Made by a program: the position numbers and the translations under genes | Notes under the pieces: model-generated | The model's input: only the letters and a program-made list of their open reading frames with translations | Told to the model about the DNA's origin: nothing | The model's database searches: none | Shown here: positions 43,153 through 62,477 of the stretch, piece by piece | How the letters are laid out: each line of letters opens with the position of its first letter | Numbering within the stretch: the stretch's first letter is position 1 | Virus record (IMG/VR): IMGVR_UViG_2778261540_000003 | Direction: 5' to 3' (one strand) | Source: a virus | Lineage: Duplodnaviria > Heunggongvirae > Uroviricota > Caudoviricetes | DNA length: 64,000 bases

Positions 43153-43315
43153 AATAATAAATTAATTAGTGCATGTACGCTCTTTGTGGTAGTGCACTTT
43201 AACATCGGGAGAATAATCGTGTCATCCAAGGTTAATTATGAGTCGCTGGCATCGGTCATGCCGCGTAATGAACAGGAAACAGATGCTGTAGTGGACCCTG
43301 TAATCGCTGAAATGA

Positions 43316-44502: not shown

Positions 44503-45176
44503 TGGCACCCACAATTTATCACCGTATCGACGGTACCAAATACAGGAATGTCTGGGTTGTTGGTGATCTGCATGGTTGCTACACCAGACTGATGTCCGAA
44601 CTCCATCGTGTGGATTTTGACCCGGCGCAGGATTTACTGATATCGGTCGGCGACCTTATCGATCGCGGTACTGAAAATGTCGAATGTCTGGAACTATTGC
44701 AGATGCCCTGGTTCAGGGCAGTGATGGGGAACCATGAGCGGCTGATGATTGATGCGTTAAGTCCAGATGGCAACGTGAATAACTGGCTAATGAATGGCGG
44801 ACAATGGTTCTTCATGCTGGACACTGATCAGGAAATATTAGCCTGGGCGCTGGTGGAGCTGGTAAAGCGTCTGCCCTATATCATTGAGTTGAACACGGGG
44901 CAAGAAACTATCGTTATAGCCCATGCCGACTATCCGGATAATGAATACCAATTCGGTAAGGAGGTGCCGCTTTTCAACGTTGTCTGGGCGCGCGAGCGTA
45001 TCAGTGATTCGATGGATGATATTGGTGGCGAAATTTCGGGCGCAGATCGTTTTATCTTTGGTCACACTCCGGTGAAAAGCCCGAAGACATTCTGGAATCA
45101 GCAGTATATCGACACTGGTGCCGTATTTTGCGGAAACCTGACATTGATGAAAGTGAAAGGTGATGGTGCAGCATGA
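44484..45176 (+). CDS. Ser/Thr protein phosphatase (lambda PP/PrpA-type metallophosphoesterase)
   Basis: Calcineurin-like motifs GDLHGC, GDLIDRG, GNHE. Confidence 0.8.
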
Positions 45177-45874
45177 AGATTGCTTTAGTTTTTCGCTCTG
45201 GTGGTGACTATAACGCTTCCGATGTGCAGTGGCTGGTTAATCAACTGCCAAAAGGCTATGAAATTATTTGCCTGACAGACCTGAAGCGTTTACATGTACC
45301 TGGCGTCAAAGTTGTCCCATTGATCAACCAGTGGCAAAAGTGCCGTGGCTGGTGGGCGAAAATCGAGTTGTTCCGACCGGATATAACCGATGATCTGTTC
45401 TATCTGGATTTGGACACGGTTATTGCCGGTGATATACGCCCAATCCTAGAGCATCCACCAACCAGCTTCACCATGCTTAGGGATTTTTACCATCCACAAT
45501 ATCGTGGCAGCGGTGCCCTGTGGATACCAAATAGTGTTAAAGCGCATATCTGGAGTTCATTCTGGCAAGATCCGGAAGGTTGGATTTCTCGTTGTGTCAC
45601 TACTGAGTGCTGGGGTGACCAGGGGTTCTTACGAAAGGTTATGGGCGATGATACACCAGCATTTCAGGATCTGTATCCAGGATGGTTTGTAAGTTACAAG
45701 GCCGATGTTGTGGAACCTGGTTCAAAATATGCGAGCGCGCGTTACTCCAGGGGGAATGGGGCATTACCAAAAGACTGCCGAATAATCTTTTTCCACGGCA
45801 AACCGCGACCTCGCGAAGTGTCAGAGGATTGGCTTCCCCTTATCAGCTCATTTTTTGAGCGAGAATCAGAATAA
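45173..45874 (+). CDS. Putative nucleotide-sugar transferase-like protein (DxD motif)
   Basis: 233-aa ORF coupled to the phosphatase gene (ATGA overlap); [11 protein letters not shown]xD-like motif. Confidence 0.35.
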
Positions 45875-45875
45875 T

Positions 45876-45892
45876 ATTGCTCTAATAATTCC
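45876..45892 (+). promoter_or_regulatory. C1-operator-like site
   Basis: ATTGCTCTAATAATTCC, 14/17 match, 2 bp after the preceding stop codon. Confidence 0.55.
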
Positions 45893-45900
45893 ATATTTTT

Positions 45901-45930
45901 AAAACGTGATGTACACTCATCACGTTTTTT
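45901..45930. terminator. Hairpin terminator between two inverted operator copies
   Basis: AAAACGTGATG-TACACT-CATCACGTTTT perfect stem flanked by an A-run and a T-run. Confidence 0.5.
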
Positions 45931-45941
45931 ATTAGAGCAAT
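45925..45941 (-). promoter_or_regulatory. C1-operator-like site (inverted orientation)
   Basis: Reverse complement reads ATTGCTCTAATAAAAAA, 14/17 match. Confidence 0.5.
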
Positions 45942-45955
45942 CTACAAGGTGCACT

Positions 45956-47510: not shown

Positions 47511-48017
47511 TTGAGTATTTTCAATAAACACGCACACCAGGAACGTCCGTATATCGTCATAGTTGATATTGATGGAACAATATCAGAGGCAACTGAAGAC
47601 AGACTGCATTTGCTTCCGCCACCAGGTAAAGGTGCATTAACAAAGGACTGGAACGAGTTTAATCTCGCCTGTGACACCGATACTCCCATCACTCCAGTTA
47701 TTGATATGGTGCGCCAGTTATTTAACGTTTACACGGTCTGGTTTGTAACCGGGCGCTGTGAGATCGCAAGGGATAAAACACTAGCCTGGCTGCGGAAGTA
47801 CGTAACAAACGGGGCTGAGCCTTTGCTATCTATGCGTCCTGCCACCGATGACAGAAATGACGGCCCAGCAAAGATTGATCTCCTTAAGAAAATTGGTCTA
47901 AGTAAAATCGCGTTCGCGCTGGAAGATAAGATTGAAGTGGCGCGTGTTTTCAGGAGGCACGGCGTGCTTACGTTAATGGTCAGGGAGTATGAAAACGCGC
48001 TTCTCCATCAACAATGA
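47511..48017 (+). CDS. HAD-superfamily phosphatase-like protein
   Basis: N-terminal VIVDIDGTI (DxDGT) motif typical of HAD hydrolases. Confidence 0.5.
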   Translation: MSIFNKHAHQERPYIVIVDIDGTISEATEDRLHLLPPPGKGALTKDWNEFNLACDTDTPITPVIDMVRQLFNVYTVWFVTGRCEIARDKTLAWLRKYVTNGAEPLLSMRPATDDRNDGPAKIDLLKKIGLSKIAFALEDKIEVARVFRRHGVLTLMVREYENALLHQQ

Positions 48018-48033
48018 TTGCTCTAATAAATAT
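48017..48033 (+). promoter_or_regulatory. C1-operator-like site
   Basis: ATTGCTCTAATAAATAT, 16/17 match, overlapping the preceding stop codon. Confidence 0.7.
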
Positions 48034-48211
48034 TGATTTTTAAAACAGAGAAAGTGAAAATAAAAACATGCCGCAAGGCGCGGCATGTATCCAATCAATC
48101 ACAGGAGCTGAAAATATGAACACGGCATTCAAAATCATTATGGCCGCGATCTATTTCTGGCTGTTCTCTATCACTTTTGGCGGCATCGTCGCACATGGGT
48201 AAGGGGGATGC

Positions 48212-48793
48212 ATGAAAGGCGAAGTGAAAGAGCGCGGCATGATTTTTAACGATGAGATGGTCCGGGCAATTCTTGGCGGGAATAAAACACAGACTCGCAG
48301 GATTGTTGAAGAAAAATTCTATGGACGGGCAGTGGCCGCAGAGTTGCTTGCCAAGCATTGTCCATATGGTCAACCGGGCGATCGTATTTGGGTTCGCGAA
48401 ACCTACCGGGTACATGGCAAAGCGACGGACGTCGCAACGCTGGTTTATCGCGCAAGCGTGCGTAACTCCTGGACAGAACAAACGCACCGGGTTCCGGTCG
48501 AGGTTTGTAATAAACCAGTATCAGAAAAGTGGACGCCATCAATTCACATGCCGCGCTGGGCATCGCGCATTCTTCTGGAAATTACCAACGTGCGCGTTGA
48601 GCGGTTGAACGATATCAGCGAATGCGATGCAAGGGCTGAGGGCGCACCAACAGAATCGACCCTCATTGGCGATAAGCATTACCCAGGTTTCCGTAGCCTA
48701 TGGAAATCAATTTATGGCGAAGATAGTTGGAACGCTAATCCTTGGGTGTGGGTAATAGAGTTTGAGCGTATTCAGGGGGCAACCAGTGAGTGA
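48212..48793 (+). CDS. Hypothetical protein
   Basis: 193-aa ORF, first in an operator-controlled operon. Confidence 0.4.
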   Translation: MKGEVKERGMIFNDEMVRAILGGNKTQTRRIVEEKFYGRAVAAELLAKHCPYGQPGDRIWVRETYRVHGKATDVATLVYRASVRNSWTEQTHRVPVEVCNKPVSEKWTPSIHMPRWASRILLEITNVRVERLNDISECDARAEGAPTESTLIGDKHYPGFRSLWKSIYGEDSWNANPWVWVIEFERIQGATSE

Positions 48794-49046
48794 GTCAAAA
48801 TGCCAAATTAATGGCAACAAGATAGAACCGTGCGCGGCGTTGGCACAATCCCTGGAGCATGACGCTGAATACACGACGCGAAAAGGTCTGCTGAAATACA
48901 AAATCTATAACCATGAATTAATTCATTCACAAGACCTGATCATGCTGCGGTCTGGTGAATTTTCTAAATCGCCTATTCGAGTTTCATTTTGCCCGTTCTG
49001 TGGTGAAAGTCTGAAAACGTGGGAAGCGGAGGCAACCAGTGAATAA
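48762..49046 (+). CDS. Hypothetical small Cys-containing protein
   Basis: 94-aa ORF overlapping both neighbours; FCPFCGESL motif. Confidence 0.35.
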   Translation: MSVFRGQPVSESKCQINGNKIEPCAALAQSLEHDAEYTTRKGLLKYKIYNHELIHSQDLIMLRSGEFSKSPIRVSFCPFCGESLKTWEAEATSE

Positions 49047-49683
49047 CCGCTTTTACATGATGTGCTTGCGTGAAACTGTGGGTAATAACGCCTCATTCCA
49101 TTGCCATAACGGCAATGGTTACAGTTCTGATATCGATCGCGCTCATGTTTACACGCTGGAAGAAGCCCAAAAAGCCTGGAATTGTGGACGAGATATCGAT
49201 CAGCCTGTTTGCGCTGATAGCGTGGATGCAATGGCTGTGTGGCACGTTGATTGCCAGTACATCCCCACAGAAAGCCTGATTGAGTCAGATTGCACTGCGT
49301 ATGTGGCCTACAAAAAAGGTAGCTGGAACGGCAACGATGTTTACTGGCTTCAACACGGTGGATTGCCAACAGATGACTTCAGTAAAGCGACCATCTTTAG
49401 CGTCGCCAACAAAAACGAACCAGGAATAGTTTGGTTGCCATTTTCCATTGCTGATGCAGCAAAGCGTCGGACGTTCAATATCAATAACTTTAACCGCAGA
49501 ACAATGGTTCAGGGCGCAGGTTTGGTCATGCCTGACTGGTTGAAAGAGCAGAACAGAAGAAAGAAGTCGCGAAGCGGGAAGGTGCGTTGGAATTGTCCGC
49601 ATTGCGGAAAAATAACCTGGCAGTACAGCCCATATGATTTTGAAGGCTGTAGTGATTACAACTGTGAAGGATGGCGAGAATGA
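49039..49683 (+). CDS. Hypothetical protein with C-terminal Cys cluster
   Basis: 214-aa ORF; NCPHCGKITWQYSPYDFEGCSDYNCEGW. Confidence 0.4.
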   Translation: MNNRFYMMCLRETVGNNASFHCHNGNGYSSDIDRAHVYTLEEAQKAWNCGRDIDQPVCADSVDAMAVWHVDCQYIPTESLIESDCTAYVAYKKGSWNGNDVYWLQHGGLPTDDFSKATIFSVANKNEPGIVWLPFSIADAAKRRTFNINNFNRRTMVQGAGLVMPDWLKEQNRRKKSRSGKVRWNCPHCGKITWQYSPYDFEGCSDYNCEGWRE

Positions 49684-50429
49684 CAATTGACTATCAGGCA
49701 CTGCGTGAGGCGGCAGAGCGTGCAATTCCGGCAATGGAACACCTGTTAATGTTGCCAGTTGATGATGATTTGTTAACTGAACAGGAACTTAAGGATTACG
49801 GTGTGGATATTGATGCGCTCAACGCCTTCAAATTTCTGACCGGACCAGAAACCGTGCTGGCACTACTGGATGAACGGGAAAGAAACCAGCAATACATAAA
49901 ATGCCGCGACCAGGAGAACGAGGATATTGCGCTAACGGTAGGGAAGCTGAGAGTTGAGCTTGAGGAAGTAAAACAACACGCTGAAGAATTATCCGAAACC
50001 AAGGCTGTTCGTAACCAATGGCGGCCAGATATTTGCCCAATAACCGGACGTGCATTTTTCATGTGGATTGAGCATCCAACATTGGGAAATGTGCCGACAT
50101 ATGGTGGCCCATTAGATAGTTACACCATTCCAACAAAGGACGGTGACGGTGAGTTTTCATGTGAGCGTTACGATCATGATTTTGGCGGTTGGGTAGAAAG
50201 CGAATGTCTTGGGTTATATCTGATTGATGATAGAGAACAATGCAGGGTCTACGAACTGGAGGAACGCGTTAAGGAACTGGATGCTCGGGAAATATCGCTC
50301 CCGGAACGTAGCAGCATGCTTCATCGAACAGATTTTCACGATGATTACCAAACGGTAATGGCATACAAAGTTTCTGAAGTCATCGATGCAATCCGCGCCG
50401 CAGGCATTCGCATCAAAGGAGGTGAGTAA
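49671..50429 (+). CDS. Hypothetical protein
   Basis: 252-aa ORF coupled to the upstream gene. Confidence 0.4.
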   Translation: MARMTIDYQALREAAERAIPAMEHLLMLPVDDDLLTEQELKDYGVDIDALNAFKFLTGPETVLALLDERERNQQYIKCRDQENEDIALTVGKLRVELEEVKQHAEELSETKAVRNQWRPDICPITGRAFFMWIEHPTLGNVPTYGGPLDSYTIPTKDGDGEFSCERYDHDFGGWVESECLGLYLIDDREQCRVYELEERVKELDAREISLPERSSMLHRTDFHDDYQTVMAYKVSEVIDAIRAAGIRIKGGE

Positions 50430-50601
50430 TGCGTGTGGCATGTATCGGCTTGTTACCGTACCCGACTCGTTTTTGGGCTTCTGCGCTAATTGCAAAGCCG
50501 TATGTCCTGATGGCTGACAACATCATCCCGGCACCAAAGCGCCGCCATACCGGTATTGCAGCGGCACGACGAGCAGCAAAGAGACGCAGGAGAGCAAAGC
50601 G

Positions 50602-50778
50602 ATGAAAAACCGTAAGGCAAAACGACTTTTTTTACAGCGACCTGTGCGTGTGGTGGAGCTGGTTATTAGCAACCATAAGATAGCGGTACTCCATCCATTT
50701 GGTCAGGTGGCTTTTGCCGCAAAGCGTAAGCCTACTGCGTCACAGAACAGGCGGAAGAAAGGGTACGCTGTAAGATGA
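50602..50778 (+). CDS. Small basic protein, tandem paralog 1 (MKNRKAK...)
   Basis: 58-codon ORF below the track size cutoff; GGAG RBS; ATGA overlap with paralog 2. Confidence 0.4.
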   Translation: MKNRKAKRLFLQRPVRVVELVISNHKIAVLHPFGQVAFAAKRKPTASQNRRKKGYAVR

Positions 50779-50963
50779 AAAACCGTAAAGCAAAGATTCT
50801 GTTAGTTCGTAGAAACGCTCCTGGCGTCTGGCAGTGGGTGAGACTCAGCAACCGACGGATGGGGTTGATGAAATATTACGGGATGATGGATTGTGGTTTT
50901 TGCAAAAAGCCCAGCGCGGCGCAAAACCGCTGGAAAAACCACTTGCGCACTAAAGGAGAGTGA
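50775..50963 (+). CDS. Small basic protein, tandem paralog 2 (MKNRKAK...)
   Basis: 62-aa ORF with the same MKNRKAK N-terminus as the upstream micro-ORF; contains CGFC. Confidence 0.4.
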   Translation: MKNRKAKILLVRRNAPGVWQWVRLSNRRMGLMKYYGMMDCGFCKKPSAAQNRWKNHLRTKGE

Positions 50964-50964
50964 T

Positions 50965-51174
50965 ATGGCTATCGCTGCAAGTTACACCATGCATCTCTAT
51001 TGTGATTGCCTCCAGTGTACAGATGGCAAATATAAGTCGCCAGACTTCGGTGAGTATATAGGTACGTCATGGGCTGGCTGTGCAAAAGAGGCGCGCAAGG
51101 ATGGCTGGCGAATAAGCAAAGACAAAACGCGTGCTTTTGCGCCCGGGCATAAAGTTTTGAGGATTAACAAATGA
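50965..51174 (+). CDS. Hypothetical small Cys-rich protein
   Basis: Internal ATG preceded by AAGGAGAG gives MAIAASYTMHLYCDCLQCTDGKYK... Confidence 0.4.
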   Translation: MAIAASYTMHLYCDCLQCTDGKYKSPDFGEYIGTSWAGCAKEARKDGWRISKDKTRAFAPGHKVLRINK

Positions 51175-52367
51175 CCACTATAACCAAAGAGCGACTGCTG
51201 ACAATCAAGCAGTGGCGCGAAACATACGGACCGGGTAGCAACGTTGTACTGCCAGCAGAAGAAGCGGAAGAACTGGCACGGATTGCTCTGGCATCGCTGG
51301 AAGCAAAACCAATAGGTGCATTCCACATTGCAGAACAGCAAGTTGACGGCACAAGTGACTACCTCAAGGATGGAGAATGGCCTATTGATAATGGAATTAT
51401 TGAGGTCTACGCCGCTCCCCCCGTTCCAGTAGTACCGGAAGAAAAACCAATGCCTAATCCTCTTAGCATGTACGCGGTTGATGCTGTTGCCGCTATTGCA
51501 GAGGTGAGAGGCTGGAACGCCTGCCGCGCCGCCATGCTTCAGTCCGGAAACTTTCGGGAAAATAAGAATTCGTCAACCAATAATTTTCGGGAAATCGCGG
51601 AAACGTCAACCAACTATCCGGTAATTCCTAGTGAAGTGTTGTCCGCAATCCTGAAGGTTGCCAAGATTCGTGCCGATTTCGATGATTTTGACGGTGACAG
51701 GCGAGGTATCGGTGATTGTCTGGATGAGGCTGAGCAAGAGCTTATCGTTACCATTAACAAATATGCCAGTCAGTTGGCAGCAGAACCGATAGCGACTAAT
51801 GACGTTCGAGAGCAAACAGCCGTTCCGCCAGTTCCTGTAATACAGGCTGATGTCGCGCAGGCAATTGAAAAACTCAAACGGAAATTAGTGGAATGCAATC
51901 GCTATAACTACTGCGCAGATGCAGTTAAGGGCGTTGAGTATGCCTGCCACGCTGCCATGCTTCAGGGTAGCCAACCTGTAAGCCAAACTTACAAGTTTCC
52001 AGTTAATACACCTTGCCAGGATGCGCCAGCCCATATCTGGCTGCAAACAGCTGGAGTATGGCCAGAAGATGGCGAGTTAAGCGAATTAACGTGGTGCAGC
52101 CACAATCAGCACCATGATGACACGCTATATGTTCGAGCTGACTTGGTAAATGGCAATTCTCAGGTAACTCCGGATGGTTGGATAAGCTGTAGTGAGCGAA
52201 TGCCCGCTCAAGATGATTGGATTTTAATTTATTCAAAGCACGGTGAGTATATGGCAGGACAGGTGCAAGGGGAATACGTGGAGTTGAGCGACGGCACTTT
52301 ATCCTGGTTAGGGAACGCCTTGTTCTGGATGCTGCTACCAGAACCTCCCCAGGAGGCAGGTCAATGA
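51171..52367 (+). CDS. Hypothetical protein
   Basis: 398-aa ORF with ATGA coupling to the upstream gene. Confidence 0.45.
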   Translation: MTTITKERLLTIKQWRETYGPGSNVVLPAEEAEELARIALASLEAKPIGAFHIAEQQVDGTSDYLKDGEWPIDNGIIEVYAAPPVPVVPEEKPMPNPLSMYAVDAVAAIAEVRGWNACRAAMLQSGNFRENKNSSTNNFREIAETSTNYPVIPSEVLSAILKVAKIRADFDDFDGDRRGIGDCLDEAEQELIVTINKYASQLAAEPIATNDVREQTAVPPVPVIQADVAQAIEKLKRKLVECNRYNYCADAVKGVEYACHAAMLQGSQPVSQTYKFPVNTPCQDAPAHIWLQTAGVWPEDGELSELTWCSHNQHHDDTLYVRADLVNGNSQVTPDGWISCSERMPAQDDWILIYSKHGEYMAGQVQGEYVELSDGTLSWLGNALFWMLLPEPPQEAGQ

Positions 52368-52431
52368 GCTGGCCTGAAGCATTCGCAACGGTAGGAATTG
52401 TGATGGCGGCAGCACTGGGTTTGTATTCAAT

Positions 52432-52683
52432 TTGTCGCTGGTGGTAACGATGGGGAAATTAACTTTTGTAGTCGAATTTGAGGATGGTAAAGAGCCACCT
52501 GTTAGCGCCAATCTTGATGTTGCTGGTGGAAGGATTGTTTCGGTTCTATTTGGTGACTACCGAGATGACTTCTTCCAACCAGAAGAAGTTGATGTGGTGC
52601 GAGAGGCATTAAACGAGTTAAGTGTTGACAACGATGATGCTCATGCGGAAATCATCCAAAAAATGGAACTGCTAACTCACTAA
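52432..52683 (+). CDS. Hypothetical small protein
   Basis: 83-aa ORF in operon context. Confidence 0.3.
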   Translation: MSLVVTMGKLTFVVEFEDGKEPPVSANLDVAGGRIVSVLFGDYRDDFFQPEEVDVVREALNELSVDNDDAHAEIIQKMELLTH

Positions 52684-52765
52684 ATTATCAATTATGGTGC
52701 TATAACCTACGACACCGAGAGAAAATTTATAATGTCAAAAGTAAATGTTTTGATTTTTTCAGCAA

Positions 52766-53155
52766 TTGTTGGCTTTGGTTTTACTGCCGGAGTGCAGATT
52801 TATATTACGTGGGAAAAAATCATCAACTACGCATGGAGTTGTTTTATTAAGTGAGGTAAGTATGTGGAGAGGTAATAATCATGGCAAAAGCCAGATGATA
52901 CTTACCGAATATAAGCTAGACCACAAAACCAATAAATCACGCTCAGTATATTTGCTCCGGCACAATAGTCGCGTAAGAAATACCGTGCTGGAACAAAATC
53001 TGACAGTTGAAATGGATAATTACGGGGGATTCAAGCCAACAATTTCACTTGATGATTTTCCTCGTGGTTTAAGCGAAAGAGAAGCAATGCTGAAATTAGC
53101 AGAATGGCTACAAAGATTAAGCATTGCTATTGAAGATAACTGGTCTGAACCTTAA
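52766..53155 (+). CDS. Hypothetical protein
   Basis: 129-aa ORF in operon context. Confidence 0.3.
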   Translation: MLALVLLPECRFILRGKKSSTTHGVVLLSEVSMWRGNNHGKSQMILTEYKLDHKTNKSRSVYLLRHNSRVRNTVLEQNLTVEMDNYGGFKPTISLDDFPRGLSEREAMLKLAEWLQRLSIAIEDNWSEP

Positions 53156-53161
53156 ATTTAT

Positions 53162-53536
53162 ATGATGACACTAAAACATTTTCTTGACCGCCCATTATGG
53201 GCGGCAGCCGCAGGCTATGACTTTAATTATATGGATTGCATGTCTTATACTGCCAATGCATACGACCATTCGTTCAGCCTGCTGTTTAATTCTTTAAGAA
53301 TATTGCCGGAAACAGAAGTTGGAGAGCTTCATTTATGGCTATTGGGCTTTATCGCGGCTGTCGTTGGTATTGCTGTATGGCCTTTTATTTTCTGGCTGGT
53401 GGCTGTTGTAGTGTGGTTTAAGTGCAAGGCATACCGGAAAAAGTATTTCTTAGGTGATGGAATGACTGATATTGCCAAAATGAACATTGAAAAATGGACT
53501 AAGGAATGTGAAAAGAAATGGCGCAAAAAGAAATGA
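53162..53536 (+). CDS. Hypothetical membrane protein
   Basis: 124-aa ORF; central hydrophobic helices (LWLLGFIAAVVGIAVWPFIFWLVAVVVWF). Confidence 0.4.
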   Translation: MMTLKHFLDRPLWAAAAGYDFNYMDCMSYTANAYDHSFSLLFNSLRILPETEVGELHLWLLGFIAAVVGIAVWPFIFWLVAVVVWFKCKAYRKKYFLGDGMTDIAKMNIEKWTKECEKKWRKKK

Positions 53537-54291
53537 CAAGAATCACTAAAGAACGCATATCAGAGATTATCGCCCGTATCGAAATGTATGGTCACGGTGC
53601 TGGATATACGGCAGATGAAGTATTGGCACTTGCCCAAATGGCTTTGGCGGCTTGCAAAGATGATAAAAAAATGAAGCTTATCGACTTGTTAGTGAAGGAG
53701 CTGCCCAAGTGCGGCGGGTGGCCTGATGGTATGATCGATTGTCGCCTGCTCAGTGCCAATTTAATGGCGCCATGCGCGACTTTTGCTTTTGGCTCGGACC
53801 ACAAAAAAGACACTTTCTTTGGGCGCAATTTTTGTTGTGAGATTGAGCTTCCAATCGGTGACCTTGATAGCGATGAATACCAGTCAGTTGTCACTCGCGA
53901 ACAATACGAAGCTGCTCTCATAGCGTCGCAGAAAGTCGAGTTCAATGGTGATGAACCTGAAAGTAAGGCTTACAAGTTAGATTTTGAGCAATGGCTGGAA
54001 CAGCAACGCGGGAAAATCGATGTGGACTGCGGTTGTGTGTCTGCGGAAACATTCATGCACTGGTTGCGGGTAGCTTATGTGGCTGGCAACCATCCGGATT
54101 TTCCGGATAGTTCCCAACAATCGCCCAAGAAAAGCGTAAAAACCACTCTGGAAAGAGGCTATCTTGAGGCCGCATTAAAGATTAAGCCGGGCCATACGCT
54201 AGGCGTCATTGATGCCATGTTGGTTCATGAAATGGCGAAGGCTTTATTGCCGCTGGTGGCTGATAAAATTCCGAATAAGGCCGATATCTGA
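53518..54291 (+). CDS. Hypothetical protein
   Basis: 257-aa ORF overlapping the upstream gene end, followed by a terminator. Confidence 0.45.
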   Translation: MAQKEMTRITKERISEIIARIEMYGHGAGYTADEVLALAQMALAACKDDKKMKLIDLLVKELPKCGGWPDGMIDCRLLSANLMAPCATFAFGSDHKKDTFFGRNFCCEIELPIGDLDSDEYQSVVTREQYEAALIASQKVEFNGDEPESKAYKLDFEQWLEQQRGKIDVDCGCVSAETFMHWLRVAYVAGNHPDFPDSSQQSPKKSVKTTLERGYLEAALKIKPGHTLGVIDAMLVHEMAKALLPLVADKIPNKADI

Positions 54292-54302
54292 TCACCATGC
54301 TA

Positions 54303-54334
54303 AAATCCCCTCAATTCACAGAGGGGATTTTTGT
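54303..54334 (+). terminator. Rho-independent terminator
   Basis: AAATCCCCTC-AATTCACA-GAGGGGATTT hairpin followed by a T-run. Confidence 0.6.
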
Positions 54335-54336
54335 AT

Positions 54337-54603
54337 ATGTTGCATAGAGTTTTATGGAAAAGCGTTATTGTCGGCGCGATACTGGCTATATCTGGGTGTG
54401 CAATGGTGCAATACAACGACGGTGAAAAGGTAAGCATACAGTCAGATGGTTGGTATGGCCTGGATAGCCTGCAAAAAACCGCAGATAAAGCCTGTCAGCA
54501 ATATGGGAAGTCTAAAGCAGTATATCAGCATAGCGCGAACGCTAACCCTAATCTTGCGCCCGGTTCGGGTGTTCAGAATACCATCTGGAAATGTGAGCCT
54601 TAA
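54337..54603 (+). CDS. Small lipoprotein
   Basis: [21 protein letters not shown]: signal peptide with lipobox ISGC. Confidence 0.5.
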
Positions 54604-54605
54604 AT

Positions 54606-54845
54606 ATGAGCGACTGGAATATTGCAGCTAAAAGTCAGGAAGAACGGGATAAGGTTAACGTTGATCTGGCTGCCAGCGGTGTGGCGTACAAAGAGCGATT
54701 GAACATACCTGTCATAGCTGAACAGGTAGCCCGCGAGCAACCAGAGAATCTGCGCACCTATTTCATGGAACGGTTACGGCACTATCGGCAGTTAAGCCTC
54801 CAGTTGCCAAAAGGGAACGATCCGGCATATCAGAAAACAGAATAG
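54606..54845 (+). CDS. hot: Homolog of DNA polymerase III theta subunit (HolE)
   Basis: [43 protein letters not shown] aligns closely with E. coli HolE. Confidence 0.85.
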
Positions 54846-54856
54846 TTGTTAGGCTA

Positions 54857-55219
54857 TTACGCAATGCCCGCGCCATTCTTAGCGGGTTTTAAGCCATATT
54901 CACCGTTGTAGAAATTACTCATGTTCCATTCATTGGGAAGCTCTTTTCTGTCCAATGTATAGTGGCGCACGATATAACGATCTTCATCTTCTTCGATGGA
55001 CAGGCGGACATAGCCAATGTGAATTACCGATACGGGCGGTGTTCGTATTGCATAGATGTCGCGAAGATATACCGGTAGCTCGACAAATGCATCAGGTGCA
55101 TCTGTGATGCTCGTTTTTTCACAGTATTCATATAACGCATCGTTGATATCGTTAAGAGATTCATGATCGTATATTTCCAGGTAATTACCGCGATCGCGAT
55201 GGTACTCGATTTTAGCCAT
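54857..55219 (-). CDS. Hypothetical protein (second gene of SOS-box-proximal module)
   Basis: 120-aa ORF abutting the upstream 194-aa ORF with no gap. Confidence 0.4.
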   Translation of the reverse strand: MAKIEYHRDRGNYLEIYDHESLNDINDALYEYCEKTSITDAPDAFVELPVYLRDIYAIRTPPVSVIHIGYVRLSIEEDEDRYIVRHYTLDRKELPNEWNMSNFYNGEYGLKPAKNGAGIA

Positions 55220-55804
55220 TCAAAATCCCCTGTTATCGTTTTGCATTTCTCTAATCCGGTTCAGAACTACTTCATGCTGGACTTGGATAGCGGCTTTTTC
55301 GTTTTCAAGCCGGGCAATAGACATCTCTAATTCTTTGCTGTACCAGGCGAGCTGGGCCAGGTTCATCCGGTTGTGGTCGAGAGTTGGAGACACTTCGACG
55401 CGATCCCTTTCTTCCTGCTTTAATGAGAAGAGATTTATCTCATCCCTTGAGGAAAATTCAGCAACAATTTCTTGTTGATGATCCGGTCGCTGCGGCATCC
55501 TCGCCAGTATAAATGGCGGTTCTTTTGAAAACATGAATGTCGGTTCAGACCGTGTTTTTACCCAGCTTGCCTGCTGTCTTTCGGCAAGTTCACAGGCTTC
55601 ATCATAGTTATCTGCCAAACAAAGCACGGATGGACGGTCCCACGCCCCACCATTCAGACAATAAACTACAATTTTCCCGTCAGGTTGTGTAACCCCATAT
55701 GGATGGTCCCACCAGGCGTCCAGCTGAGCTTTAGAGCGTTTCTCGTTAGGAGTGCAGTCAAAATTTTTGGGCAATACAGGATCGAGAGGAATGCGGGCAG
55801 GCAT
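55220..55804 (-). CDS. Hypothetical protein transcribed divergently from humD
   Basis: 194-aa ORF; its upstream region contains the LexA box shared with humD; C-terminal coiled coil. Confidence 0.45.
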   Translation of the reverse strand: MPARIPLDPVLPKNFDCTPNEKRSKAQLDAWWDHPYGVTQPDGKIVVYCLNGGAWDRPSVLCLADNYDEACELAERQQASWVKTRSEPTFMFSKEPPFILARMPQRPDHQQEIVAEFSSRDEINLFSLKQEERDRVEVSPTLDHNRMNLAQLAWYSKELEMSIARLENEKAAIQVQHEVVLNRIREMQNDNRGF

Positions 55805-55941
55805 AGCTAATTCCTTATTAACTGATTGGCAACGAGGTTACGCTGATCCGTTGGTGATGAATAGTAGCAAAGAGCACAAAATCATCAGCGGTGGTTGATG
55901 TACGTAACGCGTTTGCACCAAAGGTGTCTCTTTAATGTATA

Positions 55942-55957
55942 CTGTATAAATGAACAG
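55942..55957. promoter_or_regulatory. LexA box (SOS operator)
   Basis: CTGTATAAATGAACAG fits CTGT-N8-ACAG inside the palindrome TACTGTATAAATGAACAGTA, 21 bp upstream of humD. Confidence 0.85.
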
Positions 55958-55978
55958 TATTATTGAGGTGAAAACGCT

Positions 55979-56368
55979 ATGGGCTTCCCTTCTCCTGCGG
56001 CGGATTATGTTGAAAGCCGAATTTCTCTTGATCAGCAACTAATCAGGCATCCATCAGCAACCTACTTCATGCGGGCAGCTGATAGCCATCACCGTGAGGG
56101 AATATTGCAGGGTGCTTTGCTGGTGGTTGATTCCTCGCTTACTCCGGTTGATGGTTCTCTGCTTGTGTGCGCTATGGAGGGTGAATATCGCATAAAGAGA
56201 TACAGGAAGTATCCGCGCCAGCACCTGGAGGATTTAAGCACCGGGAAGAAAGAGGCGTTACCAGTAGATGACGATGGATACACGGGCAGTAATGCTGTTT
56301 TTGGTGTGATCACTCATGTCATCAATGATGCCAGAAGTGGGGAGTTTGATGATTGTCCGGTTATTTAA
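55979..56368 (+). CDS. humD: UmuD-like SOS mutagenesis protein HumD
   Basis: 129-aa ORF with UmuD/LexA C-terminal-domain-like sequence, preceded by a LexA box. Confidence 0.8.
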   Translation: MGFPSPAADYVESRISLDQQLIRHPSATYFMRAADSHHREGILQGALLVVDSSLTPVDGSLLVCAMEGEYRIKRYRKYPRQHLEDLSTGKKEALPVDDDGYTGSNAVFGVITHVINDARSGEFDDCPVI

Positions 56369-56395
56369 GCTGCAAAGGGCTGGTGCTTTATGCCT

Positions 56396-56434
56396 GTGAA
56401 GTTTATAATTGTGTACACATAACGAGTACACGAG
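56396..56434 (+). promoter_or_regulatory. phd-doc promoter/operator
   Basis: TATAAT hexamer followed by palindromic elements TGTGTACACA and GAGTACACGAG directly upstream of phd. Confidence 0.6.
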
Positions 56435-56440
56435 GTGTTT

Positions 56441-56662
56441 ATGCAATCCATTAACTTCCGTACCGCGCGTGGCAACCTTTCTGAAGTGCTCAACAATGTT
56501 GAAGCCGGGGAAGAGGTTGAAATCACCCGCAGAGGCCGTGAGCCAGCAGTAATTGTCAGCAAGGCTACTTTCGAAGCCTACAAAAAAGCGGCGCTGGATG
56601 CTGAATTTGCATCCCTGTTTGACACCCTGGACTCCACCAACAAGGAACTGGTTAACCGATAA
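56441..56662 (+). CDS. phd: Antitoxin Phd
   Basis: 73-aa product [73 protein letters not shown] recognised as P1 Phd. Confidence 0.95.
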
Positions 56663-57042
56663 TGAGGCATATATCACCGGAAGAACTTATTGCGCTTCAT
56701 GATGCGAATATAAGCCGCTACGGCGGCCTGCCGGGAATGTCTGATCCGGGTAGGGCAGAGGCCATTATCGGGAGAGTTCAGGCCAGAGTTGCCTACGAAG
56801 AGATCACCGACCTTTTCGAAGTCTCTGCCACCTACCTGGTGGCTACAGCGAGAGGGCATATATTCAATGATGCCAATAAGCGTACCGCGCTAAACAGTGC
56901 GCTGCTATTTCTACGCCGTAACGGGGTGCAGGTATTTGATTCACCTGAACTGGCAGACCTTACCGTAGGCGCTGCGACTGGCGAGATATCTGTATCTTCT
57001 GTCGCCGACACGTTACGTAGATTGTATGGTTCTGCGGAGTAG
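56662..57042 (+). CDS. doc: Toxin Doc (Fic-fold kinase)
   Basis: 126-aa product [40 protein letters not shown]... recognised as P1 Doc; ATAATG coupling to phd. Confidence 0.95.
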
Positions 57043-57046
57043 ATTA

Positions 57047-57226
57047 ATGGCACGCAAATACAACAAGTTGTCCCGTGAAGCGTTAAAGATGCTTCTTGAT
57101 GGCGTGAGTCGCCGCAAGGTAAAGCAATACCTGGTTGGTAAGCAAATTGGTGCCAGGACAGCTATTGCTGTGTTATGCCGTCAGGAAATGGTTGTGCTTA
57201 AACAGAGAATGCCGGGCAGCAGATAA
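57047..57226 (+). CDS. pdcA: Small basic protein downstream of doc
   Basis: ATG 5 bp after the doc stop; name by position. Confidence 0.45.
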   Translation: MARKYNKLSREALKMLLDGVSRRKVKQYLVGKQIGARTAIAVLCRQEMVVLKQRMPGSR

Positions 57227-57253
57227 AGCCCAATCAGTGATTAAAGGTGTGAT

Positions 57254-58297
57254 GTGAAAGCCGTAATTACTCCATTTGTACAGAAAGAGCTTGGCCTCGC
57301 CACGTTCAAAGTGGATCAGGAGGTCAGAAAGCTGGTGGAGGCTGGCCGTAAATTTATTATGGAGCCGGTGCCGCGTGAGTTAATCGAGCACATGGAAGAC
57401 GGCCTCGTTGTTACCGAGCAAACCATGGCAACAAATGAGGCGTTGCAGCCGTTTTTTAACAGCGATGAACTGTTTCGCCGTATTGGTGGAATTGACGCGC
57501 TGGTGGCGTGGTTGCGTAGGAAAGAGGGTCAATGCCAGGCCGCAGATCGTAGTTGGTGTGACAACCATATTGTCCACGCTGAACGAGACAATAGCGCGGT
57601 GTTGTTGTGCTGGCATCACGATAACCATTACCGGATGCGTGGTTTTAATGAGCTGAAAGAAACGCTGCACAATAATCGCGTTAACTGGATACTGGATGTC
57701 GCCCGTCAGGAAATGGGCCTTTCAAATAGCCATGATTTAAGTATTCAGGAGCTGTGCTGGTGGGCTTTCATGCGCAACATGATGCACCTGATGCCGGAAG
57801 AAGTCTGCCGCATATCAATAAATAAGATGAAGGCTACTCCGCAGGATAGCGGACCTCTGAAAGAGGCGGATATTCGCCCGTATGACGATCGCGCTACAGC
57901 ATATGTTCAGATGATGGAAGAACGCGCCGCGCCGATGCGTGCAAAAGTATGCCCTGTGGATGTTGACTCCGACCCTGGCATGGCGCATTTCAAAATACCA
58001 AAACTGCAATCGCTAAAATTACCTGAGTACATGGACTTTGTTGCTTCCCGTCCATGCTGTGGGTGTGGAGCTGCGGGAGCTGGCGCTCACATTACGCCTT
58101 ATATCGTTCGTCATAGTCGATTATGCGCGCATGACATTTACGCAATTCCTCTGTGCCAGTCATGCCAGCGTGATATTGAGCGTGACCGCGATAATTGGGA
58201 GAAGACGCACGGTAGGTTGGCGATGCATCAACGATTGTTCTTTGATTACGCGCTTGGAGTGGGCGTTATCACAAGTCATTCGTCGAGTGTTAGATAA
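57254..58297 (+). CDS. pdcB: Post-doc protein B-like
   Basis: 347-aa ORF; Cys-rich C-terminus ([13 protein letters not shown]...LCQSCQRD); name by position. Confidence 0.5.
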
Positions 58298-58298
58298 A

Positions 58299-58315
58299 AT
58301 TGCTCTAATGTATTG
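58299..58315 (+). promoter_or_regulatory. C1-operator-like site upstream of lpa
   Basis: ATTGCTCTAATGTATTG, 13/17 match, followed by a second ATTGCTATTT half-site. Confidence 0.55.
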
Positions 58316-61625: not shown

Positions 61626-62477
61626 CTATTGCGCGCTTTCGGGGTTGTCGTTTACTGGCTGCCCCTTCTTAGTTTTACGGCTGCGCGTAACTGATGCGGC
61701 TGATTTGACCTTTTTCTCTTCGCGAGTGATGGCAATTTGTTTTTTTACATTTTCAATATCTGCCAGGCGATATATTTTTGCCTGCGGCCAGCGGTCGCAG
61801 ATGATCGGTTCTATAGAGTCATAAAGGCTAAATTTTGCTTTCTCGAATTCACCGTTGATGATGATTCCATCACGGAGAGTTTCATCGCAGATAAACACAC
61901 CACACAGCGGCACATGGTAACTAACTGATTTACCATCATTGTAGTTAGGGCTACTGGAAATGTAATGGACGCGCAGCATTGTTTCGCTAAAGCCGTGTAC
62001 ACGCATACGGAATTTTTCATCCTCCGGGTACTGCTTCATTAGCTCTTTTGTTGCTTCCAGGTTCTCTATGTATTTCGCACTGTGCTCATTGATCCCCGCG
62101 CTTTTCTGGATGCGAATGTCCTTATCAATCAGATGAATAATGCGGCCAGCGGTCATGTTGACGCTGTTCACAGCTTCTGTCTGATAAGTTGTAACCTTAC
62201 GCACACCGCGAAGGATGTTAGGCACTGGATATAAAATAGTCTTTGGGATATTGAGGTCTGGGTACTGTTCCAGTTCTCGCGCCATTAAAGTCCATTTATC
62301 AATTTCAGCCTGAATGCTGTCCGTTTCTTTGAACGGCAGAACGACAACCGGGCGTACAGGACGACCGTCGCTGGCGGCATCAACGTGTTGGGCGCGTGCA
62401 ACAGCTTTTTTTAGAAAGAGATCCCTGAAGCTGACGAACTCCTGGTACAGTTGTTCGCCGTAGACATAATTTATCAT
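61626..62477 (-). CDS. c1: C1 repressor of lysis
   Basis: 283-aa product starting MINYVYGEQLYQEFVSFRDLF recognised as P1 C1; its 17-bp operator motif recurs across the window. Confidence 0.9.
   Translation of the reverse strand: MINYVYGEQLYQEFVSFRDLFLKKAVARAQHVDAASDGRPVRPVVVLPFKETDSIQAEIDKWTLMARELEQYPDLNIPKTILYPVPNILRGVRKVTTYQTEAVNSVNMTAGRIIHLIDKDIRIQKSAGINEHSAKYIENLEATKELMKQYPEDEKFRMRVHGFSETMLRVHYISSSPNYNDGKSVSYHVPLCGVFICDETLRDGIIINGEFEKAKFSLYDSIEPIICDRWPQAKIYRLADIENVKKQIAITREEKKVKSAASVTRSRKTKKGQPVNDNPESAQ

Follow-up and report, generated by a model that had tools for sequence, protein, structure and literature searches.

The two inverted 17-mers that bracket a hairpin between pmgQ and pmgR in this P1/P7-type phage are, judged by sequence identity, C1 repressor sites already catalogued in P1 and P7 (Op86a and Op86b), and the region is an ordinary, known control region. 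The hairpin between them emerges from the comparison of relatives as a real plus-strand RNA structure. Our preferred reading, which we consider rather probable, is that this known pmgR-pmgS region packs into 66 bp a terminator, an early C1-repressed promoter with its core in the hairpin-encoding DNA (the loop being the most likely -10), and the operators.

Table 1. Coordinates of the operator/hairpin module, its promoter candidates and the associated genes
Feature	Position	Strand	Basis	Remarks
pmgQ (hdmD in P7)	45173-45874	+	ORF list; P1 and P7 annotation mapped onto the window	
C1 operator Op86a (OpmgRa of P1, Op(sht a) of P7)	45876-45892	+	protein_bind 82152-82168 in AF234172; 84533-84549 in AF503408	ATTGCTCTAATAATTCC
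PpmgR as deposited ('predicted sigma 70 promoter')	45877-45905	+	AF234172	-35 TTGCTC 45877-45882, 17 nt, -10 TAAAAC 45900-45905; implied start ~45912
Weak candidate -35 for the loop -10	45889-45895	+	hexamer scan	TTCCAT with 17-nt spacer or TCCATA with 16; overlaps 3' end of Op86a
RNA hairpin	45901-45928	+	inverted-repeat search	arms 45901-45911 AAAACGTGATG and 45918-45928 CATCACGTTTT, loop 45912-45917 TACACT; proposed intrinsic terminator stem-loop
Candidate -10, loop hexamer TACACT	45912-45917	+	authors' proposal	TAnnnT invariant; implied start ~45923-45925
U-run of the proposed terminator	45925-45933	+	sequence reading	TTTTTTATT; common to 3' part of Op86b
C1 operator Op86b (OpmgRb of P1, Op(sht b) of P7)	45925-45941	-	protein_bind 82201-82217 in AF234172; 84582-84598 in AF503408	ATTGCTCTAATAAAAAA
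Shine-Dalgarno-like AAGG	45946-45949	+	sequence reading	6 nt 5' of the pmgR start codon
pmgR (shtA in P7), 72 aa	45956-46174	+	ORF list; P1/P7 annotation	first gene under the region's control
pmgS (shtB in P7), 420 aa	46176-47438	+	ORF list; P1/P7 annotation	second gene of the pmgR-pmgS unit
c1, repressor gene	61626-62477	-	283-aa ORF	282/283 residues identical to C1.100 of AF234172

The C1 operators at the pmgQ-pmgR junction

The window, the whole 64,000-nt stretch of viral DNA that was analysed, comes from a P1/P7-type phage with 99.5-99.9% identity to P1, P7 and SJ46 (99.5-99.8% over 1.2 kb against the P1 AF234172 and P7 AF503408 records). The spacer between pmgQ, with which the upstream pmgL-pmgQ unit ends, and pmgR measures 81 bp and contains the operator/hairpin module of 66 bp, with Op86a starting 1 nt past the pmgQ stop codon. 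At the Shine-Dalgarno-like site of pmgR, relatives keep AAGG or AAAG.

Both 17-mers match base for base the annotated C1 operators OpmgRa and OpmgRb of P1 (listed as the former Op86a and Op86b, which shows only an earlier naming of the sites) and Op(sht a/b) of P7, and have stood in the public records of both phages since the genome papers. The P1 record notes that the pair 'controls expression of pmgR and pmgS' and labels each site 'monovalent'. The first-pass annotation had described operator-like copies in opposite orientation around a hairpin; direct reading of the sequence returned the same coordinates for both sites and for the hairpin, and the comparison with catalogued P1 operator arrangements that it had proposed as a check finds both sites in the catalogue.

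Each site agrees with the consensus ATTGCTCTAATAAATTT at 14/17 positions and at 13/13 in the 13-nt core. The window as a whole holds 14 matches to ATTGCTCTAATAAATTT at ≤3 mismatches, where 0.28 are expected and 0 of 100 shuffles reach 14, and 9 matches to the core ATTGCTCTAATAA at ≤1 mismatch, where 0.11 are expected. The three mismatches per site, raised earlier as a ground for doubting repressor binding, are of little concern: they are confined to operator positions 14-17, the most variable ones (positions 14, 15, 16 and 17 agree with the consensus in 9, 12, 7 and 8 of 13 annotated P1 operators, respectively), and Olpa/Op94, at the non-predicted lpa promoter, also carries three, while Op99c carries five. 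The cognate repressor gene c1 is present on the same element, and each site is presumably occupied by C1.

The operator cores form a perfect inverted repeat with 13-nt arms (45876-45888 and 45929-45941; inverted-repeat search). The centres of the two sites are separated by 49 bp and their inner edges by 32 bp, and positions 14-17 of Op86b coincide with the four T that close the 3' arm of the hairpin. Literature searches on Op86, on other operator names and on C1 looping returned nothing usable.

Conservation of the hairpin and its fit to a terminator

Relatives were scanned at ~230 loci, which fall into four lineages, with JK004, L089, Newport and L093 as divergent representatives. Scans of viral contigs yielded about 125-140 loci and still only four lineages; a profile search of genome contigs with a PmgS alignment yielded only 2 near-identical loci, and a pattern scan of metagenomes picked up a single JK004-like contig, plus a plant-metagenome palindrome that is unrelated and matched by chance.

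The module keeps a length of 66 bp in all variants but one across the four lineages and their ~230 loci; pmgR identity between lineages is ~70-75%. In the divergent lineages the operator cores equal those of P1 at 25-26 of 26 positions, whereas operator tails, spacer and loop have diverged. The Op86a core is identical across the four lineages save one C>T in L089, and the Op86b core is kept at 12-13 of 13 positions in every lineage. Similarly, the U-run (alignment columns 50-58) matches P1 at 9/9 positions in JK004, L089, Newport and L093; its exceptions fall inside the P1 lineage, where L022 has T>C at column 58 and L020 one extra T.

The hairpin, a perfect 11-bp inverted repeat with a 6-nt loop, is nested inside the operator-core repeat. 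Its length and pairing are kept in the four lineages, with 97.3% of cells paired among 20 distinct sequences, and compensatory changes convert pair 31:48 from G-C to A-U and pair 34:45 from A-U to G-C. The covariation score of the hairpin was reached by 0 of 500 shuffles; few independent events stand behind this conservation of pairing. In plus-strand RNA 214 of 220 cells are paired (15 of them as G·U) versus 202 of 220 on the minus strand, and by our own count 10 types of stem variant fit the plus strand and 3 the minus strand. The strand excess of stem variants alone is not significant once the four U-run columns, which are otherwise constrained, are set aside; we take the moderately significant strand asymmetry of stem substitutions as supporting evidence only.

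The sequence TTTTT precedes the hairpin and TTATT follows it; the latter, joined to four T at the end of the 3' arm, makes up the run given in Table 1. Folding of the entire operator-hairpin stretch gives -26.9 kcal/mol (z = -8.4 versus shuffles); the 11-bp hairpin alone folds at -13.0 kcal/mol, and a 7-bp core with 4 G-C pairs, which A-U pairs extend to 11 bp, at -8.5 kcal/mol. In all four lineages the hairpin starts 27 nt past the pmgQ stop codon, at the end of a transcription unit. Hairpin and U-run fit an intrinsic terminator for the pmgL-pmgQ unit, and transcription would presumably terminate there. The bracketed 11-bp perfect stem with terminator anatomy thus stands as first described, now with its conservation as plus-strand RNA structure, and the earlier phrase 'combined terminator/operator' comes close to what the evidence supports.

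We note that the stem is short and of moderate stability. A terminator scan called the hairpin neither in the window nor in three relatives; only 4 T stand in the 8 bases after the full 11-bp stem, and in our reading the hairpin conforms to the scan's stated criteria only with the 7-bp core taken as its stem. The sole Rfam match was a meaningless miRNA (19.6 bits; gathering score 211). Published P1 maps with Rho-independent terminators drawn are mentioned in PMC8201110.

Transcription and promoter candidates for pmgR

Two independent P1vir RNA-seq studies contain a step-up of ~2 log2 at the pmgQ|pmgR junction at 10 min. For wild type at 10 min, the log fold changes are 6.9-7.4 for pmgO-pmgQ, 9.0 for pmgR and 10.0 for pmgS in the one study, and for dksA 6.1-6.6, 9.0 and 9.1 (PMC8201110, Table S1); in the other, wild-type pmgQ, pmgR and pmgS reach 5.94, 7.96 and 8.21 at 10 min and 8.08, 9.36 and 10.04 at 20 min (bioRxiv 10.64898/2025.12.28.696737). 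The early step-up therefore points to an early promoter inside the 81-bp spacer and gives indirect support to early transcription starting there. At 30 min the three genes have similar values (pmgQ 11.66, pmgR 10.81, pmgS 11.70; PMC8201110), so that strong termination is not demonstrated by these data; being gene-level fold changes versus time 0 without length normalisation, these values allow only rough comparison between genes.

The RNA-seq behaviour of pmgR-pmgS is early and that of the upstream unit intermediate or late; for the latter the P1 record lists a Lpa-dependent late promoter, LPpmgL, and C1-controlled predicted promoters. Of the 'two early operons' between which the first-pass annotation had placed the hairpin, the downstream one behaves as early, as claimed, and the upstream one does not.

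Within the spacer, the loop hexamer appears from sequence comparison to be a better -10 candidate than the deposited TAAAAC. Columns 1 (T), 2 (A) and 6 (T) of the loop never change, columns 3-5 vary (TACACT, TACGCT, TATCAT, TATTAT), and the middle positions drift toward TATAAT in other lineages. In JK004 our promoter scan calls the loop candidate, TTTACT-16-TATCAT, at 9/12; no site in the window reaches this 9/12 cut-off, and in P1 itself the loop promoter (TCCATA-16-TACACT) scores 7/12, no better than the deposited PpmgR. The candidate -35 lies where it does in Plpa, Pdmt and P4cre, P1 promoters annotated without 'predicted', whose -35 begins at operator position 15-17. The loop types number three or four and represent few evolutionary events. 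Taken together, the hairpin region probably also holds the core of a repressible promoter for pmgR-pmgS. The loop-promoter reading is a small refinement and a candidate, from which we infer the exact pmgR start site; a literature search for P1 transcription start-site mapping found none.

Further promoter candidates were tried and rejected or, in the case of the leftward one, judged unsupported. A P1 late (Lpa-dependent) promoter was sought as a 9-bp -22 element (e.g. ATGTGACTT), ~4 nt and a -10, with LPpmgL, LP26, LPhot and LPpac of AF234172 as references; ATGTACACT (45909-45917) matches the -22 element at 5/9, with no TAnnnT at the right distance. A leftward promoter, ATGATA-18-TAAAAT on the minus strand of JK004 and Newport, reads AGTGTA / TGGAAT in P1, is inconsistent across lineages and is followed by no leftward gene; the alternative leftward TGTACA-16-TGGAAT of P1 is without A at -10 position 2. 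With Op86b as the -35 of a minus-strand promoter, the hexamer at 17 nt is AGTGTA.

Two other placements of the promoter have to be weighed against the loop. The deposited PpmgR, annotated in AF234172 as a predicted sigma 70 promoter, would take its -35 from Op86a and its -10 from the hairpin 5' arm and start in the loop, and its transcripts, without the 5' arm, would escape the terminator. The RNA-seq step-up is compatible with it, as with any promoter in the spacer, and the same hexamers at the same spacing (TTGCTC-17-TAAAAC) are predicted again at Op88 as P2pmgT. However, it matches at only 7/12 positions and is without T at the last -10 position, at a level where the hexamer scan finds ~39 matches per kb-strand in the window; TTGCTC serves as -35 in none of the inspected P1 promoters annotated without 'predicted'; and A at -10 position 2 is replaced by G in JK004 (TGAAGC) and, within the P1 lineage, in loci such as L017 and L038 (TGAAAC), changes that keep the hairpin through G·U and would disable the -10. 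We regard this promoter as unlikely. Highly improbable, in our estimate, is a promoter formed by an extended -10-like element in the operator (TGCTCTAAT, 45878-45886) with a start near 45893, which would make the region a promoter-proximal attenuator or the source of a ~40-nt RNA. It has a parallel in PkilA (former P53, not 'predicted') of AF234172, whose -10 TCTAAT lies at operator positions 6-11, and both Op86a and Op86b contain TGn plus a 5/6 hexamer; the conservation of this element is non-discriminating because it is the operator core, which is invariant anyway. There is no usable -35 (best 2-3/6), and a terminator sitting immediately 3' of the start would be difficult to reconcile with the 4- to 8-fold early increase in pmgR and pmgS. 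P1 is not known to have an antiterminator.

The two remaining alternatives concern the operators and the palindrome themselves. The first-pass annotation had suggested repressor-mediated looping, and the operators might indeed cooperate via repressor-repressor contact in a loop or wrapped complex, possibly with the corepressor Lxc, the 49-bp spacing being a phasing requirement. The conserved 66-bp span would suit this idea, and C1-mediated looping between Op99 operators was reportedly described by Heinzel et al. in 1994. Yet 49 bp amounts to ~4.7 turns, a non-integral number, and would make a very short loop, and the P1 record treats both sites as monovalent. Looping is unneeded, since the fixed span is already explained by three local constraints, namely operator-promoter spacing, the hairpin and the overlap of U-run and Op86b; nothing requires it, and we consider it improbable. 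As for the inner palindrome, we give next to no credence to the view that it is a DNA-level site, for binding of a dimeric protein or as a cruciform, instead of an RNA terminator. It is a perfect 11-bp inverted repeat, and the compensatory changes preserve the DNA palindrome too, but variants in JK004, L089, E. albertii and several members of the P1 lineage give G·U in plus-strand RNA and an A·C mismatch in the other strand or a cruciform. In addition, the invariant U-run lies 3' of the stem on the plus strand only (the minus-strand tail is TTTTAAAAA), and terminators typically lie, as this stem does, right behind a stop codon.

Proposed mechanism and comparison with known systems

In the arrangement we favour, the hairpin and U-run in plus-strand RNA would end transcripts arriving from pmgL-pmgQ, and an early sigma-70 promoter for pmgR-pmgS would have its core inside the hairpin-encoding DNA. 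With the loop hexamer as the most likely -10, the start would fall near 45924; transcripts from the loop promoter would be without the hairpin 5' arm and would therefore escape termination. Op86a would overlap the -35 side (about -48 to -32) and Op86b would cover about +1 to +18. In a lysogen, one C1 monomer per operator would clamp the core promoter from both sides, and contact between the two bound repressors would be unnecessary. C1 bound at Op86b, the operator that has the U-run in common with the terminator, might in addition form a roadblock that strengthens termination in lysogens. We advance only tentatively, as a possibility, the full three-in-one form of this 66-bp element, in which a single 28-bp segment would both halt arriving transcripts and start hairpin-less ones with the loop as -10, and C1 would clamp from the -35 side and from +1. 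If it is true, the deposited P1 promoter is misplaced by ~12 bp.

These results have little import beyond P1 biology. They describe a case of regulatory compaction, with terminator, promoter core and two operators overlapping in 66 bp whose length is kept despite ~25-30% divergence of pmgR, and they offer a possible correction to the annotated PpmgR. pmgR is listed as a known essential gene with a role in morphogenesis (PMC10695390), and the most conserved genes of P1-like phage-plasmids include pmgR and pmgS; the true start site is for these reasons relevant to the engineering of P1 or P1-based vectors. The CRISPRi essentiality data are silent on a separate promoter for pmgR, since no phenotype followed when pmgR itself was knocked down (PMC10695390).

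Compared with their named counterparts, OpmgRa/b of P1 and Op(sht a/b) of P7, the operators are without difference: sequence, orientations and place between pmgQ/hdmD and pmgR/shtA are the same. The P1 and P7 records annotate no terminator here, and the predicted promoter of the P1 record (TTGCTC / TAAAAC) is disfavoured by the comparison of relatives. The bivalent C1 operators of P1 (for instance Oc1ab, i.e. Op99a,b, and the window pair at 32016-32043, probably Op72a,b) are likewise convergent 17-mers with their A+T-rich 3' ends facing. Their sites, however, have 6 bp in common and together cover 28 bp, whereas Op86a and Op86b stand 32 bp apart and span 66 bp, with the hairpin and the putative promoter core between them.

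At Plpa (Op94), Pdmt (Op68) and P4cre (Op99e) the operator lies directly 5' of the -35 and overlaps it, as Op86a would if the loop is the -10. Each of these three has only one operator, with a TTGnTT -35 beginning at operator position 17; Op86a, in contrast, has C at position 17 and a weak -35, and a second operator, Op86b, would lie over the start region. Enterobacterial and phage intrinsic terminators likewise place a stem-loop directly after a stop codon, flanked by an A-run on the 5' side and a U-run on the 3' side, and keep its pairing by compensatory or G·U changes on the transcribed strand. The hairpin described here differs from typical ones in its short 7-bp core with 4 G-C pairs, which a generic scan leaves uncalled, and in its overlaps with other elements: the DNA of loop and arms apparently also serves as a promoter core, and the U-run belongs to an operator as well.

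The operator pair in the pmgQ-pmgR spacer

The two inverted 17-mers bracketing a perfect 11-bp-stem hairpin, as described in the first-pass annotation, are exact in every coordinate, by both sequence inspection and repeat search. Op86a and Op86b, the C1 repressor 17-mers of this 81-bp spacer, each contain a perfect 13-nt core and depart at three positions from the P1 C1 operator consensus (ATTGCTCTAATAAATTT; 22 operators scattered over the P1 genome, PMC8546580). With up to three mismatches, the consensus has 14 matches in the window versus 0.28 in shuffles; the core with at most one mismatch has 9 versus 0.11. In fact, P1, P7, SJ46 and other punaviruses share 99.5-99.9% identity with the 1.2 kb around the site, and comparison with catalogued P1 operators identifies both 17-mers. 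AF234172 (P1) annotates Op86a as "monovalent C1-controlled operator OpmgRa" (former Op86a), controlling pmgR and pmgS expression, and Op86b as OpmgRb (former Op86b), while the P7 record lists the same 17-mers as Op(sht[a]) and Op(sht[b]). The pair is therefore a rediscovery of a known, catalogued feature, Op86a/b. Added here are comparative support for a plus-strand terminator hairpin, RNA-seq data in favour of an early promoter within the spacer, and a proposed, testable shift of that promoter's -10 element to the hairpin loop.

Features of the spacer and of other window regions, with identity of divergent lineages to P1
Feature	Window position	Strand	Sequence or remark	Identity to P1
Op86a	45876-45892	+	ATTGCTCTAATAATTCC	
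Op86b	45925-45941	-	ATTGCTCTAATAAAAAA as read on the - strand	
Operator cores	45876-45888 / 45929-45941		perfect inverted repeat enclosing the hairpin repeat (repeat search)	25-26/26
Op86a tail				2-3/4
Spacer segment				5-6/8
Stem arms	45901-45911 / 45918-45928		perfect 11-bp inverted repeat (repeat search)	7-9/11 each
Hairpin loop	45912-45917		6 nt, TACACT	3/6
U-run	45925-45933			9/9
pmgR coding sequence				70-75%
Leftward promoter-like site	45888-45917 (equivalent)	-	related loci L003 1739-1768, L005 1714-1743	
Oppp/Op83	43159-43175 (expected)		CATGCACTAATTAATTT	
Op88-equivalent operator	48017-48033	+		
Terminator-like hairpin	48066-48088	-	10 pairs, 6 G-C, then TTTTATTTTC	
lpa operator equivalent	58299		ATTGCTCTAATGTATTG, identical to Olpa/Op94	
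c1, repressor gene	61626-62477	-	282/283 residues identical to P1 C1.100	

The three mismatches, initially regarded as a concern, all fall at positions 14-17. Across the 13 operators annotated in AF234172, the consensus base occurs in 12-13 at positions 3-5 and 7-11 and in 9-11 at the other positions within the first 13, against just 9/13, 7/13 and 8/13 at positions 14, 16 and 17. Three mismatches are also found in Olpa/Op94, at the non-predicted lpa promoter, and in Op99a; Op99c has five. The AAAA tail of Op86b arises because it is complementary to the last four T of the hairpin 3' arm, so that operator and hairpin have sequence in common. We note that motif scans at three mismatches undercount catalogued P1 operators: Oppp/Op83, with four, is therefore missed.

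We compared P1/P7-type loci from IMG/VR, plasmids and phage records with three divergent lineages, namely Cronobacter phage JK004 with L089 and L225, Salmonella Newport pCVMN1543 with L090-L092, and L093. Measured across both operators, outer end to outer end, the module is 66 bp long in about 230 loci, with one exception carrying an additional T in the T-run. Judged from the alignments, constraint on the operators and U-run exceeds that on the adjacent gene pmgR.

The earlier interpretation, repressor looping or a terminator/operator switch between two early operons, holds in part: both the operators and the terminator-like hairpin are genuine, but looping and the two early operons find no support. 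Centre to centre, the operators are separated by 49 bp, or about 4.7 turns. Heinzel et al. reportedly described, in 1994, C1-mediated looping involving Op99 operators, much farther apart than Op86a and Op86b. AF234172 labels each site "monovalent", and gives the upstream pmgL-pmgQ unit an Lpa-dependent late promoter, LPpmgL, together with C1-controlled predicted promoters. The fixed 66-bp length is explained by local constraints: operator-promoter spacing, the hairpin, and the overlap of U-run and Op86b. Cooperative C1 binding at the pair, with or without Lxc, is compatible with everything computable here.

A plus-strand hairpin downstream of pmgQ

The region of the operators and hairpin has a folding energy of -26.9 kcal/mol (z = -8.4), and RNAalifold recovers the same 11-bp stem. 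Standard pairs fill 97.3% of stem cells in a set of 20 distinct sequences, a share that falls to 39-72% in slid registers. Compensatory change occurs at two pairs, G-C to A-U (columns 31:48) and A-U to G-C (34:45), and none of 500 shuffles reached the observed covariation score. All four divergent representatives retain 11/11 plus-strand pairs, in part through G·U (three in JK004, two each in L089 and an E. albertii variant), which would be A·C mismatches on the minus strand or in a cruciform. In total, 214/220 stem cells pair on the plus strand versus 202/220 on the minus; by hand count, ten stem variant types fit plus-strand pairing and three only minus-strand pairing, an excess that is modest without the U-run columns. 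The pairing kept across these sequences marks the hairpin as a plus-strand RNA structure. A DNA-level site for a dimeric protein, which the inner palindrome might otherwise suggest, is disfavoured by the same G·U pattern and by a U-run on one side only.

The 7-bp core of the stem, four of its pairs being G-C, gives -8.5 kcal/mol, and extension by four A-U pairs brings this to -13.0 kcal/mol; TTTTTTATT follows on the plus strand and TTTTAAAAA on the minus. Each lineage places the beginning of the hairpin 27 nt beyond the stop codon of pmgQ. These features support an intrinsic terminator anatomy, putatively serving transcripts coming out of pmgQ. A generic terminator scan called the hairpin neither in the window nor in any of three relatives. 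If all 11 bp are taken as the stem, T occupies only 4/8 of the next bases; on manual reading, taking just the 7-bp core would bring the hairpin within the scan's stated limits. No Rfam family matches it.

Other operators and regions of the window

Six plus-strand operators (12869, 14538, 28740, 45876, 48017, 63119) are alike beyond the 17-mer, 17-30 nt past the operator start, in a T-run followed by TAA or TAT (e.g., gtaTTTTTAAGTc, cgTTTTCTAAGTg, tgTTTTTTATGTc, ataTTTTTAAAAc, tgaTTTTTAAAAc, tgaTTTTTATGCg). At Pdmt and P4cre, annotated without "predicted", the extension start is the -35 (TTGTTT and TTGATT), and the operator module seems to span about 30 bp instead of 17. Every C1 operator core of the window also contains TGCTCTAAT (e.g., 45878-45886, +; 45939-45931, -), resembling an extended -10: TGn plus 5/6 of TATAAT. 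Each operator could be a latent, -35-independent promoter directly occluded by C1.

The strong minus-strand hairpin between pap and pmgT lies just downstream of the Op88 equivalent, where annotated genes are all on the plus strand; it would halt antisense transcription coming in from pmgT. According to the P1 record, this stretch is similar to the E. coli sequence that follows hsd loci. The window, which resembles P7 and SJ46 marginally more than P1, is offset from P1 by 36,276 at the Op86 sites and by 31,605 at the lpa operator, and is therefore about 4.7 kb longer than P1 between pmgS and lpa (about 48100-58300).

An early promoter in the spacer and the place of its -10 element

P1vir RNA-seq, log fold change versus time 0, without length normalisation
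Strain, time	Upstream genes	pmgR	pmgS	Source
Wild type, 10 min	pmgO-pmgQ 6.9-7.4	9.0	10.0	PMC8201110 Table S1
dksA, 10 min	pmgO-pmgQ 6.1-6.6	9.0	9.1	PMC8201110 Table S1
Wild type, 10 min	pmgQ 5.94	7.96	8.21	bioRxiv 10.64898/2025.12.28.696737
Wild type, 20 min	pmgQ 8.08	9.36	10.04	bioRxiv 10.64898/2025.12.28.696737

In PMC8201110 Table S1, the C1-controlled early genes cre, ant1, kilA, hrdC and dmt have values of 8.5-10.4, compared with 3-5 for late genes. A gene-length correction would steepen the rise at pmgR, a short gene, and leave pmgS with one of about four-fold. Since the spacer is the sole non-coding DNA separating pmgQ from pmgR, this early step-up in the transcriptome tables supports an early promoter within it. 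At 30 min the genes are alike (pmgQ 11.66, pmgR 10.81, pmgS 11.70), which neither proves nor excludes partial termination. An Lpa-dependent late promoter was looked for in the spacer and is absent. A leftward promoter-like call (ATGATA-18-TAAAAT, 9/12) in JK004 and the Salmonella Newport plasmid is not retained in P1; its -35 is the reverse complement of the hairpin loop, and it would run antisense into the pmgQ end.

AF234172 predicts a promoter with -35 TTGCTC in Op86a, -10 TAAAAC in the hairpin 5' arm and a start at about 45912. This placement is possible and somewhat the less probable: it matches at 7/12, a score found about 39 times per kb-strand in the window, its -10 lacks the T at the last position, and JK004 and some P1-lineage loci (L017 and L038, for example) carry G at the second, substitutions under which G·U pairing keeps the hairpin. 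The operator's own TGCTCTAAT could instead supply an extended -10-like element, much as PkilA/P53, annotated without "predicted", uses operator TCTAAT as its -10. That option fits poorly; Op86a has no -35 for it, and its transcript would meet the terminator at once, at odds with the early increase in pmgR and pmgS.

We propose that the hairpin-loop hexamer is the likelier -10 element, a preference drawn from few evolutionary events. Alignment columns 37, 38 and 42 of the loop (T, A, T) are invariant and columns 39-41 variable, giving TACACT and TACGCT in the P1 lineage, TATCAT in three lineages and TATTAT in L089. By its alignment, the loop conforms to TAnnnT, the signature of a -10 element, and outside P1 it comes nearer to TATAAT. 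A promoter scan calls TTTACT-16-TATCAT (9/12) in JK004, whereas the P1 match is TCCATA-16-TACACT (7/12). Transcription from the loop -10 would start at about 45924, with Op86b at about +1 to +18. Like those from the annotated promoter, such transcripts would lack the hairpin 5' arm and therefore would not be terminated by the hairpin. The proposed -35 would overlap the 3' end of Op86a, the same operator/-35 arrangement as in P1 Plpa, Pdmt and P4cre, all annotated without "predicted".
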